Shown piece after piece: positions 25,842-34,294 of a stretch of DNA of 64,000 bases. The number at the start of each line of letters is the position of its first letter. Positions within the stretch are counted from its first letter, which is position 1. Below the pieces are notes generated by a model, which saw nothing but the letters and a program-made list of their open reading frames with translations, had not been told where the DNA came from and searched no databases. Source of the stretch: a virus; the IMG/VR virus record IMGVR_UViG_3300043449_000492, positions 64,001 through 128,000 of that record, one strand, 5' to 3'. Position numbers and translations under genes: made by a program.

Positions 25842-26918
25842 ATGGCCTTAATTGCTATGCCTACCGATACCCACGCTGGTGTCAGAAATGACAATCCGGC
25901 TTTTCAACTATATCAGAAGCGATGCTGGCAATGGTTCTTTGACTATATTGATAAGTATAACATTAAGCATGTAATCCATCTTGGTGACATTTATGATCGT
26001 CGCAAGTATATTAATTTCATGTCTGCGAAGCGACTTCGTGAGGACTTTTTAGAACCTCTAGAGGAGCGGGGAATTGAAACCCATATTATTCAAGGTAATC
26101 ACGATTCTTATTACAAAGATACGCATGAAGTTAATGCACTTGAGGAAGTTATCTCTGGAAGATATCGTTACATTAGGACTCATAGTGTCCCTACTGTTAT
26201 CAGTATTGATGGGCTTGATATTCAATTAATGCCATGGATCACTGACTCTAATCGTCAGGAAGCCTATGAAGCAATCAAAAATCCTAAAGCTTCGATACTC
26301 ATGGGTCATCTTGAGTTAAACGGCTTTACAATGCATAGAGGACTCATATCAGATCATGGACTGGATCGTAAGCTTTTTGAGAAATTCGACGCTGTTTATT
26401 CTGGCCACTATCATCATCGTTCTAGCGTTGGCAACATTACTTATATTGGAGCCTTGGCAGAATATACTTGGCATGATTATGGGGACCCACGAGGATTCAG
26501 CATCCTAGATACTAATACTAGAACTATGGAGTTTGAACAGAATCCACATAAGATGTTTAGACTTGCAAAGTATGATGACATTGCTAATCCTGAGATAATT
26601 GACAAGATTCAAAAGACAGATTTCTCCAAGTATAAGGATTGTTTCGTCAAGCTAGTTGTGGTGAACAAGTCTAATCCATATGCATTCGACCTGTTGTTTG
26701 ATTCGCTTTATAAAGCAGGTCCTCTTGATATTCAGATTGTTGAAGATCCTACTATTCTACTCGACGGTGAAGTCTCTGACGAGATTGACGAAGCGGAAGA
26801 TACAGTAACGATTCTTCGCAAATATATCGATGGTTTGACACTCTCGGTTAATAACGAGAGAATGAAAAAATTCATGATTGATGTTTACAACGAAGCCTTA
26901 CAGGTTGAAACGATATAG
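25842..26918 (+). CDS. gp47: Recombination endonuclease subunit (Mre11/SbcD-like)
   Basis: DTH, HLGD..DRRK, GNHD, GHLEL.GF, SGHYH phosphoesterase motifs. Confidence 0.95.
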
Positions 26919-26928
26919 GAATCGTATT

Positions 26929-28719
26929 ATGAAAAAGTTTGTACCCTTTATTATTTTCTTTTTGGTAGGTGTAGTCCTTTATTGGATGTCACTACCTGCT
27001 GAACACAAGCTAACGAATGAGATTAGCTATTCTGACTTCATCGGTCAGGTAGATCGCAATAACATTCATGATGTTTATATCTCAGGTAATCAGCTTACAG
27101 GACACTTTACTTCTGACAATAGAGAGTTTAAGACTGCTATTGCAGGTATATCTTCACTTCTACCAAAGTTAGAAGAACACAAAGTAAGTATCAAGATTAG
27201 AACAGACGATCCAGAATCTACTTTCTGGACTTCAATGTTTATCAATCTTCTTCCTGTTCTTCTATTCTTCGGTCTTTGGATTTGGTTATCTCGTCGTTCT
27301 GGTACAGGTGGTCCAGGCGGCATCATGGGAATGGGCAAGTCAAAAGCAAAGTTACTGACCGAGTCTGCAACAACAAAGACATTTGAAGATGTTGCTGGTG
27401 TTGATCAAGCTAAAGAAGACTTGCAAGAGATTGTAGAGTTTCTAAGAAATCCTGCTAAGTTTGAAAGACTTGGTGGTAAGATTCCAAAGGGAATTCTACT
27501 CGTTGGTCCTCCAGGCACTGGTAAGACACTATTAGCAAGAGCAGTTGCTGGACAAGCGGGTGTTCCTTTCTTTAGCATTTCAGGATCTGACTTCGTTGAA
27601 ATGTTTGTTGGTGTTGGCGCTTCCCGTGTTAGAGACATGTTCGATCAAGCAAAGAAGAATGCACCATGCATTGTCTTCATTGACGAAATCGATGCTGTTG
27701 GCAGATCACGTGGTTCTGGTATGGGTGGTAATGATGAGCGTGACCAGACACTAAATGCAATGCTTGTTGAAATGGACGGATTCAATGATAATGCGGGTGT
27801 TATTGTTATTGCTGCTACTAACCGTGTGGACGTTCTGGATAAGGCTCTAACAAGACCTGGTCGTTTCGATAGACAGATTCAAGTTCCTAATCCAGACTTT
27901 GTTGGTCGTCAACATATTCTCAAGGTTCACACTCGCAAGGTTCCTGTTGGACCCGATGTTGATCTAAAAGTTATTGCAAAGGGAACATCAGGCTTCTCTG
28001 GTGCTGATCTTGCAAATCTAGTTAACGAAGCTGCTCTCCTTGCTGCTCGACGTTCAAAGCGTATTGTAACAGCACAAGAGTTTGAAGATTCCCGTGATAA
28101 GATTCTAATGGGATCTGAGCATAGAACACTAGCAATGACTGATGAAGAAAAAAGAATGACAGCATATCATGAAGGTGGTCATGCTCTCGTATCACTTAAC
28201 ATGTCAGGCTCTATTCCAATCCACAAAGCAACGATTATCCCCAGGGGCCGTGCATTAGGTATGGTACAGTCTCTACCTGAGCGTGATCAAATCTCACAGT
28301 CATATGAAGAAATGATTGCACACCTTGCTATGGCAATGGGTGGTCGTGCCGCAGAAGAAATCGTCTTCGGTAAAGATAGTGTAACATCTGGTGCTGCATC
28401 TGATATTCAAGCAGCTACTAAGATGGCTAGAGCAATGGTAACTCAGCTAGGATTCTCTCCACTTCTTGGTCGTATGGCTTATGAAGATCCTAATGCTGAT
28501 GCCTTTCGTGGACCTAAGGTTGCAGAAGAAACACAGAAGATTGTGGATATTGAAATCAAGCGCCTCGTTGAGGAAGGTTATTCTACTGCTAGAAGAATCC
28601 TCACTCTTAAGAGAAAAGACCTTGACACACTAGCCGAAGGCCTGTTAGAATATGAGACTCTAACGGGTAAAGAGATTAAGGACTTGTTAGAAGGAAAGAA
28701 ACCTAAGCGAGACTTTTGA
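26929..28719 (+). CDS. ftsH: ATP-dependent membrane zinc metalloprotease FtsH
   Basis: Two TM segments, [64 protein letters not shown]; start reassigned to ATG 26929 behind AGGA. Confidence 0.97.
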
Positions 28720-28904: not shown

Positions 28905-30622
28905 TAACTTTTAATGCGATTAGATGGAAGAACTTTCTATCTTCTGGTAATGTGTTTACTGAAATTAGTTTAGATTCAGCTAAGAATACTCTTATTATAG
29001 GTCACAACGGTGCGGGCAAATCTACCTTTCTAGACGCCCTCACCTTCTCTCTCTTTGGTAAACCTTTTCGTAAGGTGAACAAAGGTAATGTGGTCAACTC
29101 TATCAATAATAAGAACTGTGTGGTCGAGATTGAGTTTACTATCAATACACACAAGTATAAGGTCATCAGAGGTGTTAAGCCAAACATCTTTGAGATTTAC
29201 TGTGATGATATCAAAATCAATCAAGACGCAGCAACTAAGGACTATCAAGAGCATCTGGAGAAGATCATTCTCCGTATGAACTATAAGTCCTTTACACAGG
29301 TTGTCATTCTAGGTTCTGCATCGTTCGTTCCGTTCATGCAGCTATCTGCAAATGATCGACGTTCTGTGATCGAAGACTTGTTGGACATTCAAATCTTTAC
29401 AGCTATGTCAACTGTGGTAAAGAACAAGCTACAGTTGAATCGTGAAACGATTGATAAGAACAAGGTGCTTCTATCTAGCAAAGAAGATAACAAGTCTTAC
29501 ATTGAACGAACACTAGCCTCACTTAAGATTAACAACGAAGAAAAACTAAAAGAGCTAGATGCTAAAAGGCATGAAATAGCAGCTAAACTTCAATTCGAAA
29601 AGATTGATGTTGCTAATCGTCAGGCTGCATTAGATAAAGCCTTAGAGAATGACCTTGATCTATCTCCATTCAAGTCCAAGCATTCTAAGCTTGTTAGCTT
29701 TAGAGCTAAGATGGAAGCAAATCGTGATAAGTATATCAAAGATACTGACTTCTTTGCTGAATCAGGCACATGCCCAACTTGTCGTCAAGACATTGCGCCT
29801 GAGTTTTCTAAGAAAATGATTGATGATAACGAGAAGAAGGTTCATGAACTTTCAGATGGACTAAATAAGGTTGAGCAGCAAATCGACTCTGTTCTAGTAG
29901 AGATAGACGAGATTGAAAAGATACTCACAAATATTAACAACCTTAAGTTGGAACTTTCATCTGCTAAGGCTTCCTATAACAATCTTGTTGATAGGCTTAA
30001 TCAAATTGTGGCTCAGATTGACAGCTTTGCTAAGGCTGACAAAACAACCCAAGATAGCGAACGACAACTCACCGAAGTCGAACATGATATTTCCACCCTC
30101 GAAAAAGAGAAGAAGACCCTTCTAGATGAAAGACAATACATCGACATGGCAACTACCCTTCTCAAAGACGGTGGTATCAAGACACGGATCATCAAGCAGT
30201 ATCTACCTATCATCAACAAGCACATTAACAAGTATCTGGCAAAACTTGGTTTCTTCGTCAATTTCAATATCAACGAATCATTCGAGGAGACCATCAAGTC
30301 TCGTTATAGAGACGAGTTCAGCTATCACAATTTCAGTGAAGGCGAGAAACTACGAATCGATCTTGCTATCCTTCTGACATGGCGCCAAATTGCCAAGATG
30401 AAAAATTCGGTCAACGTCAACATTCTTGTGTTTGACGAAATCCTTGATCGAGCAATGGACACTACAGGAATCGATGAGTTTATTAGGATCATGTGGGATA
30501 TGGGAAATGAAGGGGCCAATATCTTCGTCATTTCCCACAAAGACATTATGGTCGATCGATTCCAGAGAACATTACGATTTGAGAAGATAAAGAACTTTTC
30601 TGTATTGACAAGTGACGGATGA
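28901..30622 (+). CDS. gp46: Recombination ATPase subunit (Rad50/SbcC-like)
   Basis: WKNFLSSGN, GHNGAGKS, CPTC zinc hook, FSEGEK signature, VFDEI Walker B, ISH. Confidence 0.96.
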   Translation: MITFNAIRWKNFLSSGNVFTEISLDSAKNTLIIGHNGAGKSTFLDALTFSLFGKPFRKVNKGNVVNSINNKNCVVEIEFTINTHKYKVIRGVKPNIFEIYCDDIKINQDAATKDYQEHLEKIILRMNYKSFTQVVILGSASFVPFMQLSANDRRSVIEDLLDIQIFTAMSTVVKNKLQLNRETIDKNKVLLSSKEDNKSYIERTLASLKINNEEKLKELDAKRHEIAAKLQFEKIDVANRQAALDKALENDLDLSPFKSKHSKLVSFRAKMEANRDKYIKDTDFFAESGTCPTCRQDIAPEFSKKMIDDNEKKVHELSDGLNKVEQQIDSVLVEIDEIEKILTNINNLKLELSSAKASYNNLVDRLNQIVAQIDSFAKADKTTQDSERQLTEVEHDISTLEKEKKTLLDERQYIDMATTLLKDGGIKTRIIKQYLPIINKHINKYLAKLGFFVNFNINESFEETIKSRYRDEFSYHNFSEGEKLRIDLAILLTWRQIAKMKNSVNVNILVFDEILDRAMDTTGIDEFIRIMWDMGNEGANIFVISHKDIMVDRFQRTLRFEKIKNFSVLTSDG

Positions 30623-30633
30623 TAGTCTATAAT
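30605..30633 (+). promoter_or_regulatory. Consensus sigma70 promoter heading the operon that contains the DNA-modification triad
   Basis: TTGACA-N17-TATAAT exact. Confidence 0.8.
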
Positions 30634-30658: not shown

Positions 30659-30967
30659 ATGGATAAGGATCTCATCCGAGCTATGGCCAAGGCGGAAAGA
30701 ATGATGGACAAAGGAGAGATTCCTTTTGTCTGGGCTCCAAGTGCTAGAGGTATTATGGAGAGACTTGCTTGCACAAATGCTATTATGGAAGAGTTTGGTC
30801 TAGAGAACGCACAGACTGTCAATTCCATGATTCGTGAAGCAATCTTAAATTATAATCTAGAACAGCTTAGACAACGCATCGAAGAAATCACTGACAACCT
30901 TGGACTCGATTCTGAGTTTGACTTTCGCAAACAACTAGATGAGGACGAAGATGATAACAGTAATTAA
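30659..30967 (+). CDS. Hypothetical protein
   Basis: 102 aa with AGGAG RBS. Confidence 0.6.
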   Translation: MDKDLIRAMAKAERMMDKGEIPFVWAPSARGIMERLACTNAIMEEFGLENAQTVNSMIREAILNYNLEQLRQRIEEITDNLGLDSEFDFRKQLDEDEDDNSN

Positions 30968-31561: not shown

Positions 31562-32374
31562 ATGACCTTTGACAAAATTTTAGAAAATGTTTTAGAAGAT
31601 AACTTAAGAGAACAAGATGTAGCTATATTATTCTCAGGTGGTATTGATTCAATATCTTTAGCTTTCGCAGCACATCGATTAGGCAAGAAACTACACTGTT
31701 ACACAATGTATGTGAATGGTGTAGTTTCTAAAGACGCACAGAACGCTATAGATGTTGCAGACAAGTTCGGTTGGGAAATGACTCTCATTGATGTTCCAAT
31801 CGACAATCTAGTAAATGACTTCAAGCATCTAATCAATCATTACGGTTGTAAGAAGAAGACCCAGGTCGAATGTGCCTGGCCTTTTCTGTATGTATATCCT
31901 CATATCAAAGAGAGAGAAATTATCTCTGGTCTAGGAGCAGACGGCTTGCAAGGCTCATCTAAGAAAGTCTGTCTGCATTTTAAAGAACCTAAAGAGTTAT
32001 TCGATTCATATAGAAAAGAGTATTTTGATCTTAACATAACACCAAATCCTGGTGGCATGTTACAGCATGAGCAACTCTGTGAGGAGTTTGAAAAAAAGTT
32101 TGTTGTTCCCTATCATGATGATCGAGTGATAGACTACTTTATGCAGTTCGATTGGTATGACCTAAATAAACCATATCCGAAGAACAAAGTGATTGACGCT
32201 TTTCCAGAGTTTCAACAAATCAAGGTAAGACGACATGAGAACCTGCAACTTGCAGCAGGTATACCGTCTCACTTTGAGAAACTGCTTGACAATCCTGAAG
32301 TAAACGTATATAATAGAAAAAGAGTAATGGATCTCATTCGAGATTGGAATGACATGGGAGATACGCTGTTTTGA
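31562..32374 (+). CDS. Asparagine-synthetase-like ATP-dependent amide ligase (synthetase domain only)
   Basis: PP-loop LFSGGIDS, SGLGADGL, PY.D..V; no N-terminal Cys-glutaminase domain. Confidence 0.8.
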   Translation: MTFDKILENVLEDNLREQDVAILFSGGIDSISLAFAAHRLGKKLHCYTMYVNGVVSKDAQNAIDVADKFGWEMTLIDVPIDNLVNDFKHLINHYGCKKKTQVECAWPFLYVYPHIKEREIISGLGADGLQGSSKKVCLHFKEPKELFDSYRKEYFDLNITPNPGGMLQHEQLCEEFEKKFVVPYHDDRVIDYFMQFDWYDLNKPYPKNKVIDAFPEFQQIKVRRHENLQLAAGIPSHFEKLLDNPEVNVYNRKRVMDLIRDWNDMGDTLF

Positions 32375-33600
32375 AATATGCACCTTATACCGTTGAAGAC
32401 GTAAAGAAGGCATCTGCCCAGAATAAGTTTACAGTTATTAGCTGTTTCGCTGGTGGAGGTGGTAGTTCGACTGGCTATCGTCTAGCTGGCGGAAAGATTC
32501 TTTTAATCAATGAATTTGTTGAATCTGCAATCGAATCCTACAAAGCGAACTATCCTGACACTCCTGTTCTTGTTGATGATATCAAGAAATACACTGGTCA
32601 AGACTTTCTCGACATGGCAAAGATTAAAGCTGGAGAGCTAGACATTCTAGATGGTTCTCCACCATGTTCTGCATTTTCTATCGCAGGTAAGCGTGAGAAA
32701 GGTTGGGCTGGTGCCGAACTAGATACTCGCCGTGCCTATTTTGATGATGATGGTGAGATTGTTCAAGAAGGTGAGCTAGTCGTCAAGGAAGGCATTAAGC
32801 TTTATTCTGATGGCAAGCAAGTAGAAGCAATTGAAGACCTGTTCCATGAGTTCATTCGTGTAGCTGCTGATATCAAGCCTAAGGTTATTGTTGCTGAGAA
32901 CGTGAAAGGTATTACGTTCGGCGAAGCAAAGGGTAAGCTACATGAGTTTATTAAAGCGTTTGAAGATATTGGATATCAGGTAACGTATCGAGTGCTTAAT
33001 GCTGCTGACTATGGCACACCACAAGCAAGAGAGCGAACAATCTTTATTTGTGTTAGAGACGATATAGCTGATGCTGTTGGCTTGAACTTCCTGACACTTG
33101 AAAACATCTTTCCTGATAAGACATATAATGAGCATGTTTCTCTTAAGGAAGCTATTCATGATGTGGTATCTGATCCAGCACAAGAGAAAGAGTTATATGA
33201 TTATGTGCAGAATGGCTTTCAGAAGAAGTGGATTGAAATGCTTCCATTCAATCCTTCTAGGCATATGAAGCCATCTGACAAAGAGTTTATCGCTATCAAT
33301 CCCAAGCGTTCACTTTTCAATATGATTAGACCTGCTCCACATTTGCCTTCTCCAACGATTACACAACGAGGCAATCAGAAGTCAGTGTCTGGTGTATTTC
33401 ACTATGAGAAGAATCGTAAGTTTACTGTACCAGAGCTAAGACGCATCATGTCATTACCTGATGACTATGAGTTAAAAGGTAACTTCGATCAGCAAGCGGA
33501 ACGTATTGGTCGAATGGTCGCACCGAAGATGATGGCAGAAGTTGCAAACGCTATCTATGAAAAAGTATTGAAACCATATAATGAGGCAAACCATGAGTGA
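32371..33600 (+). CDS. C5-cytosine DNA methyltransferase-fold enzyme, predicted carboxymethyltransferase
   Basis: FAGGGG (I), DGSPPCSAFS (IV), ENV (VI), QARER (VIII), motif X reads IGRMV instead of GNxV; TTG start. Confidence 0.85.
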   Translation: MKYAPYTVEDVKKASAQNKFTVISCFAGGGGSSTGYRLAGGKILLINEFVESAIESYKANYPDTPVLVDDIKKYTGQDFLDMAKIKAGELDILDGSPPCSAFSIAGKREKGWAGAELDTRRAYFDDDGEIVQEGELVVKEGIKLYSDGKQVEAIEDLFHEFIRVAADIKPKVIVAENVKGITFGEAKGKLHEFIKAFEDIGYQVTYRVLNAADYGTPQARERTIFICVRDDIADAVGLNFLTLENIFPDKTYNEHVSLKEAIHDVVSDPAQEKELYDYVQNGFQKKWIEMLPFNPSRHMKPSDKEFIAINPKRSLFNMIRPAPHLPSPTITQRGNQKSVSGVFHYEKNRKFTVPELRRIMSLPDDYELKGNFDQQAERIGRMVAPKMMAEVANAIYEKVLKPYNEANHE

Positions 33601-34294
33601 TTATGATTTTACATTTGCACACCGTGACGAAGGCTTTGACAATCACATTGAAAAGTCTATTCGAGGTTATAATTATCTGCATGATGACATTATCAATCTA
33701 TCTCGATACTATGTTGAAGATTGGACAAACGTAGTTGACATTGGTTCTTCTACAGGTAAGACAATCGAGGCAATGGCTATTCAGAACGAACACTTTGCTC
33801 CTTCTGCAACATATGTTGGTGTAGAACTTGCAGAAGGCTTTAGAGTCGAAATGGAAGCCCGCTTTACTCTATTGCGTGAAAGTCTACCAGAGACATTTTT
33901 TGAGTTTGAGTTCGGCGACATTCGTGAATATCTTTTTGATAACTGTTCACTTGTCACTTCTCTATTCACTCTACAGTTTATGCCTCCGAAAGATCGTGAG
34001 AATGTTATTCGTAACATCTATAATGGACTCAATGAAGGCGGTGCATTCATCTTCGCTGAAAAGACTGTAGCTGAAACAGGTCGATTCCAAGACATGTTCA
34101 CATTTACCTACTATGACTATAAGCGTAAGAATTTCACTGAGAAAGATATCATGCAAAAGGAAGTCACGCTTCGTAACATGCTCAAGCCAAACACATGGGC
34201 AGAGATTGAAGACATGCTACGTTCCGCAGGTTTCAAGAAAGTCCAGCCTTTCTGGCAGAACTTTCTTTTTGTTGGTGCAATCGCCATTAAGTAA
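33593..34294 (+). CDS. cmoA: CmoA-like carboxy-S-adenosylmethionine synthase
   Basis: DFTF...FDNHIEKSIRGY, DIGSSTG, FTLQFM, GAFIFAEK, AGF...FWQNFLFVGAIAIK parallel CmoA (WTF..FPDMIQRSVPGY, DLGCSLG, FTLQFL, GALVLSEK, WFQCFNFGSLVALK). Confidence 0.85.
   Translation: MSDYDFTFAHRDEGFDNHIEKSIRGYNYLHDDIINLSRYYVEDWTNVVDIGSSTGKTIEAMAIQNEHFAPSATYVGVELAEGFRVEMEARFTLLRESLPETFFEFEFGDIREYLFDNCSLVTSLFTLQFMPPKDRENVIRNIYNGLNEGGAFIFAEKTVAETGRFQDMFTFTYYDYKRKNFTEKDIMQKEVTLRNMLKPNTWAEIEDMLRSAGFKKVQPFWQNFLFVGAIAIK

Follow-up and report, generated by a model that had tools for sequence, protein, structure and literature searches.

A motif-X arginine and a cmoY-cmoX-cmoA cassette point to a CmoX-type DNA cytosine carboxymethyltransferase in an uncultivated T4-like phage

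An uncultivated T4-like phage encodes an orthologue-level member of the CmoX family, predicted to be a Cx-SAM-dependent DNA cytosine C5-carboxymethyltransferase that forms a DNA hypermodification pathway with the neighboring CmoA and CmoY homologues; we give this reading a probability of about 0.9. The enzyme has an arginine in motif X, at the position where canonical C5-cytosine methyltransferases (C5-MTases) have an asparagine. The motif-X Arg, the CmoX family and the CmoA/CmoY pathway were already published in December 2025 (Yang et al., Nat Commun; PMC12783734); the gene described here is a further example and not a discovery. In particular, that paper has as its main structural finding that an Asn-to-Arg substitution in motif X marks a natural carboxymethyltransferase.

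The window, i.e. the whole stretch of 64,000 nt that was analysed, comprises bases 64001-128000 of a complete 169,069-bp IMG/VR virus genome with direct terminal repeats, and has a GC content of 40%. It contains three ORFs (31562-32374, 32371-33600 and 33581-34294) that overlap one another, all on the + strand. The features of this cassette are listed below, each with its basis in parentheses.

31562-32374, + strand: cmoY homologue, a 270-aa PP-loop, asparagine-synthase-like ATP-dependent amide ligase (PF00733, identity to SpCmoY)
32286-32314, + strand: perfect sigma-70 consensus TTGACA-17-TATAAT in the 3' end of cmoY, 57 nt upstream of cmoX (consensus scan only)
32371-33600, + strand: cmoX homologue, a 409-aa protein with a C5-cytosine methyltransferase fold (PF00145, match to 8YF3_A, AlphaFold2 model)
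32656-32667, + strand: motif IV, SPPC (Ser96-Pro97-Pro98-Cys99), with the catalytic Cys nucleophile, equivalent to SpCmoX S95-C98 (invariant in 83/83 sequences)
32707-32796, + strand: β-rich insertion of ~27 aa (residues ~113-142) in the loop after motif IV (pairwise gap against SpCmoX, clade alignment)
33499-33534, + strand: motif X segment ERIGRMVAPKMM, with Arg381 in place of the canonical Asn (translation, alignments)
33581-34294, + strand: cmoA homologue, Cx-SAM synthase by homology, 237 aa from the ATG at 33581 (identity to SpCmoA, TIGR00740)

The published counterpart is SpCmoX of Synechococcus phage S-B43, described by Yang et al. and deposited as PDB 8YF3 under the title 'DNA cytosine C5-carboxymethyltransferase in complex with Cx-SAM'. 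SpCmoX acts on dsDNA and plasmids and generates 5-carboxymethylcytosine (5cxmC) at GC sites of dsDNA, with Cx-SAM provided by the phage CmoA (PMC12783734). In the 1.9 Å structure with Cx-SAM, Arg350 replaces Asn304 of HhaI and directly contacts the carboxymethyl group (PMC12783734). The third protein, CmoY, is an asparagine-synthetase homologue that ligates glycine to 5cxmC, and the resulting glycine amide is present in native S-B43 DNA (PMC12783734). Defining CmoX by SPPC together with R350, the same study retrieved 5,615 homologues from IMG/VR, UniProt and MGnify, on whose contigs 4,257 CmoA and 2,251 ligase genes were found; according to its authors, different amines may be used by other ligase clusters, with specificities still to be determined (PMC12783734).

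The S-B43 and window phages share the cmoA/cmoX/cmoY gene set and a T4-like (Kyanoviridae-type) background, and their CmoX proteins are alike in full-length sequence (50% identity), SPPC motif, cofactor contacts and motif-X Arg (R350 = R381). They differ in gene order, which is Y-X-A in the window and A-Y-X in S-B43, and in the catalytic loop, where the window enzyme carries the ~27-aa insertion that SpCmoX lacks; moreover, the target-recognition regions (TRDs) are only 37% identical. The window phage is uncultivated and AT-richer than S-B43. We infer the activity of its CmoX, the target motif and the amine used by its CmoY from the S-B43 enzymes.

The translation of 32371-33600 (+) contains ...DQQAERIGRMVAPKMMAEVANAIY..., in which motif X spans residues 377-388, encoded by 33499-33534 (+). 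The initial annotation had located the substituting Arg at a CGA codon at 33511-33513, and translation returns Arg381 at exactly these coordinates; the canonical motif-X Asn (GN[A/S]V) is absent and GRMV stands there instead. It had also claimed that this Arg occupies the position of the motif-X Asn of canonical C5-MTases, which is borne out by several alignments. In ungapped HMMER alignments, the R of ...ERIGRMVAP... lies over the N of ...KMIGNAVPV... in M.HaeIII and over the N of ...RQIGNAVPP... in Arabidopsis MET1/DNMT1 chains, the latter match (E 1.3e-4) being obtained with the C-terminal 90 residues of the cmoX homologue as sole query. In a MAFFT alignment including E. coli Dcm (MG1655 genome), the Arg shares a column with the N of QFGNSV. 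In a BLASTP comparison with the S-B43 gene, R381 lies opposite SpCmoX R350, the position equivalent to HhaI N304 (PMC12783734). In PDB searches with the full-length protein and the C-terminal fragment, the motif X region was aligned only to 8YF3, HaeIII and MET1/DNMT1. This Arg is shared by every one of the 83 aligned clade sequences, which comprise the window, 80 IMG/VR relatives (61-89% identity), S-B43 and S-CRM01. At 33499-33534 there is no overlap with a credible ORF on the minus strand or with any other feature.

The proposed pairing of this Arg with the Cx-SAM carboxylate agrees with 8YF3, in which the aligned Arg350 of a 50%-identical homologue contacts the carboxymethyl group. That the residue marks a natural carboxymethyltransferase is likewise supported, namely by SpCmoX homology, structure and gene associations. 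The engineered M.MpeI N374K had been put forward as precedent, a likeness that PMC12783734 draws as well, stating that Arg350 'strikingly mirrors' this mutant; N-to-K engineering is also described in PMC12015181, and methylation with SAM persists in some of the engineered N-to-K enzymes. In M.MpeI N374K and M.MedI N377K, the motif-X Asn has been exchanged for a basic residue that pairs with the carboxylate of Cx-SAM, as the window Arg is predicted to do (PMC12015181, PMC12783734). Those enzymes were made in the laboratory by introducing Lys into CpG-specific Mycoplasma methyltransferases, and they retain some SAM activity, whereas the window enzyme is natural, uses Arg and belongs to another subfamily, its likeness to M.MpeI being taken from PMC12783734. 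For the cofactor assay of wild type and R-to-N revertant suggested in the initial annotation, results are known on SpCmoX: the wild type accepts Cx-SAM only, as expected, but R350N is inactive and methyl transfer is not restored (PMC12783734). Because R350N accepts neither cofactor, the Arg is necessary in SpCmoX, while its reversal is insufficient for methyl transfer.

The cmoX homologue, which starts with TTG and overlaps the cmoY stop, matches PF00145 (C5-cytosine DNA methylase; Pfam, E 8.9e-54) and the NCBIfam dcm superfamily (157.6 bits). Its best solved-structure match is 8YF3_A (E 2.5e-108), with HaeIII and HhaI far behind (~1e-20 to 1e-17), and the 50% identity to SpCmoX extends over 397 columns (BLASTP). 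When an AlphaFold2 (AF2) model based on 14 clade sequences (mean pLDDT 85.8) was compared with the PDB by Foldseek, 8YF3 ranked first (E 3.2e-39, target-normalised TM 0.93, rmsd 2.5 Å), followed by M.HhaI and HaeIII-DNA complexes. F25, E47, F48 and D69, named as the Cx-SAM adenine/ribose contacts of SpCmoX (PMC12783734), correspond to F26, E48, F49 and D70 in the window enzyme and are invariant in 83/83 sequences. M.HhaI, M.HaeIII, Dcm and DNMT1/MET1 share with the window enzyme the fold, the catalytic Cys, the ENV motif and the order of motifs I-X; these canonical C5-MTases have the motif-X Asn, use SAM as cofactor and are ~20% identical to it.

On the upstream side, the cmoY homologue matches PF00733 (Asn_synthase; E 4.5e-14), has the PP-loop SGGIDS at residues 25-30, is devoid of a glutaminase domain and shares 50% identity with SpCmoY (E 1e-82). 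Within the clade, CmoY diverges more than the other two proteins (40-68% identity versus 61-89% for CmoX), and 37 near-invariant residues, many of them Lys and Arg, are common to the clade CmoY, SpCmoY and PaBG. The cmoY homologue is predicted to amidate 5cxmC, probably with glycine as the amine. On the downstream side, the cmoA homologue is 57% identical to the assayed SpCmoA (E 3e-93). Its best NCBIfam match is CmoA TIGR00740, at 110.7 bits and covering 14-239 of 239 positions; the equivalog cut-off of 193.3 bits exceeds both this score and that of the enzymatically validated SpCmoA (115.6 bits). The second ATG, at 33593, appears the likelier cmoA start, with GAGG before it and an overlap with the cmoX stop. 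The consensus at 32286-32314 is a possible internal promoter for cmoX-cmoA. Because the three-gene cassette gave no megablast match among 50,697 phage records, it seems to be carried by no cultured phage at the nucleotide level.

Co-occurrence of the Arg with cmoA had been suggested as a check on the role of the residue, and the outcome is positive. All 80 IMG/VR relatives of the window CmoX (61-89% identity) carry the Arg, and their loci also encode CmoA (77/80) and CmoY (69/80) but no TET (0/80). The nearest non-CmoX relatives are typified by the MTase of Methylophilales phage Melnitz-3 (L003:4001-6185), which is 37% identical to the window CmoX and lies beside a Tet_JBP dioxygenase (PF12851). 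This arrangement fits the published phage pathway to 5hmC, which relies on a GpC methyltransferase and TET (Burke et al., PNAS 2021, PMC8256090). In this sister clade, 80 of the 80 relatives of the Melnitz MTase (loci L099-L178) have Leu at the Arg position, 65/80 are located directly upstream of a homologue of the Melnitz TET, and CmoA and CmoY are both absent from the loci (0/80 each); as each 80-locus set represents one clade, the counts are not independent events. Both types have the GGGGS and SPPC motifs and a T4-like phage background, and both would serve post-replicative cytosine hypermodification. They differ in that the Melnitz type combines Leu with a Tet_JBP neighbor and would use 5mC as the handle towards 5hmC, whereas the window type combines Arg with CmoA/CmoY and would use 5cxmC. 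The Arg/Leu difference has the appearance of a naturally occurring residue switch between the 5cxmC/CmoY and 5mC/TET pathways, and the split between the sister clades, Arg with CmoA versus Leu with TET, is a clean natural experiment in which the residue tracks the chemistry.

The association extends beyond these clades. In a small cross-lineage sample of GenBank phages (7 + 8), all seven Arg-type MTases share their record with a CmoA-like gene, compared to one of the eight non-Arg types. The Arg types originate from unrelated phage lineages (window, S-B43, S-CRM01, Moraxella Mcat8, Pseudomonas PaBG, Erwinia Y3 and Streptomyces TurkishDelight). The seven non-Arg types without CmoA are Melnitz (Leu), Flavobacterium Fpv11 and Bacteroides LoVEphage (Met), Nostoc YongM, RB43 and Burkholderia E555 (Asn), and Vibrio 1.161.O. 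The exception is a Staphylococcus SPbeta-like phage (L086:7947-9646), in which cmoA is directly upstream of a C5-MTase without the Arg. The overall pattern is consistent with the larger survey of PMC12783734. Chance substitution of Asn by Arg was considered and ruled out, as the Arg is present in 83/83 sequences and partitions with CmoA.

Taken together, the following mechanism is proposed; sequence, alignments, fold and gene associations were obtained here, and the chemistry and the Arg-carboxylate contact are taken from the 50-57% identical S-B43 enzymes. CmoA would convert SAM and prephenate into Cx-SAM. CmoX would flip out the target cytosine, after which Cys99 would attack C6, Arg381 of motif X would hold the Cx-SAM carboxylate and the C5 carbanion would take up the carboxymethyl group, with β-elimination releasing 5cxmC. 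Subsequently, CmoY would adenylate the 5cxmC carboxylate and ligate an amine, most likely glycine, yielding 5-glycylcarboxymethylcytosine. The outcome would be a post-replicative hypermodification that protects the 169-kb genome of this T4-like phage against restriction by its host.

An ordinary SAM-dependent 5mC methyltransferase, with an incidental Arg and a CmoA devoted to tRNA modification or SAM depletion, would explain why all C5-MTase catalytic motifs are intact in the cmoX homologue, and the residual methylation with SAM by some engineered N-to-K enzymes (PMC12015181) is in line with it. We nevertheless regard it as very improbable, given that wild-type SpCmoX accepts only Cx-SAM (PMC12783734), that the Arg is invariant and tied to CmoA while the sister clade feeding a 5mC-dependent TET has Leu, and that a carboxylate-activating ligase is translationally coupled upstream. 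In addition, CmoB (PF08003), which would use Cx-SAM on tRNA, was not found in the complete 169-kb phage genome. Use of Cx-SAM on tRNA was rejected on this ground. The same absence can be turned around: CmoA is otherwise a tRNA-modification enzyme, and in a phage without CmoB the CmoX homologue might act on RNA or free nucleotides instead of dsDNA, for instance as a CmoB replacement. This is the least probable reading of all, at odds with the DNA C5-MTase fold and motifs, with the structural matches to 8YF3 and then to M.HhaI/HaeIII-DNA complexes, and with the SpCmoX precedent, where dsDNA and plasmids are modified and native phage DNA carries the product (PMC12783734).

Assuming a Cx-SAM-dependent DNA carboxymethyltransferase, the site and the final base still have to be considered. 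GC is a plausible target motif of the window CmoX, and the 64,000-nt window contains 2,770 GpC sites (O/E 1.08). GC specificity is not assured, because the TRD is only 37% identical to SpCmoX, compared to 67% in the catalytic core, and the catalytic loop has ~27 extra aa. This insertion occurs in 63/83 aligned sequences, with the conserved pattern DTRxxYFDxxGxxxxEGEL, and is absent from 20/83; SpCmoX lacks it, and AF2 predicts short strands in it with moderate pLDDT (56-77). It is conceivable, albeit unlikely, that insertion-bearing CmoX enzymes write at a motif other than GC and/or that their CmoY attaches an amine other than glycine, which would amount to a cytosine hypermodification or specificity not yet described. 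Besides the divergent TRD and the clade-specific insertion, this alternative can draw on the divergence of CmoY, which is missing from some relatives, and on the suggestion that other ligase clusters may use other amines (PMC12783734). Glycine is favored by the placement of the window CmoY: with 50% identity to SpCmoY at E 1e-82, it falls well inside the largest ligase cluster of PMC12783734 (edge threshold 1e-56), which is reported to keep the glycine-carboxylate-binding residues, and the 37 near-invariant residues are common to the window-clade CmoY and SpCmoY. GC is favored by the related TET-linked phage C5-MTs, which also prefer GpC (PMC8256090). Specificity studies or DNA-labelling tools could reasonably draw CmoX variants from the insertion-bearing clade of heterotroph-type T4-like phages.

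The cmoX homologue is the only C5-MTase in the complete phage genome. The genes around the cassette are T4-like and include a gp46/SbcC-like protein that is ~45% identical to gp46 of cyanophages and of Methylophilales phage Melnitz, which points to a Kyanoviridae-like myovirus. Just upstream of this gp46-like gene, a 613-aa AAA+ FtsH-like protein (phrog_30773, E 2e-215) is encoded at 26878-28719. A second perfect TTGACA-17-TATAAT sequence, at 30605-30633 (+), spans the 3' end of the gp46-like gene (30622) and is located upstream of a small ORF that starts at 30659.

Further observations were made on the MTases of the cross-lineage sample. Motif X of the Staphylococcus SPbeta-like MTase reads VVGGVI, with Gly at the Arg/Asn position, although the alignment is less certain there. 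The C5-MTase of Vibrio phage 1.161.O (L098:598-1620) has QYERCS-GIPP as motif X, without an equivalent of the Asn/Arg; neither the window CmoA as query nor TIGR00740 detected a CmoA in its partial 140-kb record. Flavobacterium phage Fpv11 (L092:544-1611) and Bacteroides LoVEphage (L094:535-1641) encode CmoX-like MTases with SPPC and GGGS and with Met at the Arg position, presumably using SAM as cofactor. The Arg-type MTase of Erwinia phage vB_EamM_Y3 (L085:2980-5109) measures 709 aa and is interrupted by an intein-like insertion of ~370 aa exactly at the SPPC catalytic Cys, and the jumbo genome encodes a CmoA and a CmoY homologue ~14-18 kb away from it. Lastly, Streptomyces phage TurkishDelight (L093:4296-9324) encodes, in this order, two ParB-like proteins, an Arg-type MTase, an AsnB-like ligase (466 aa) and CmoA. 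This ligase is full-length and includes a glutaminase domain, thereby matching the second ligase cluster of PMC12783734, which is predicted to make a simple amide from glutamine-derived ammonia.
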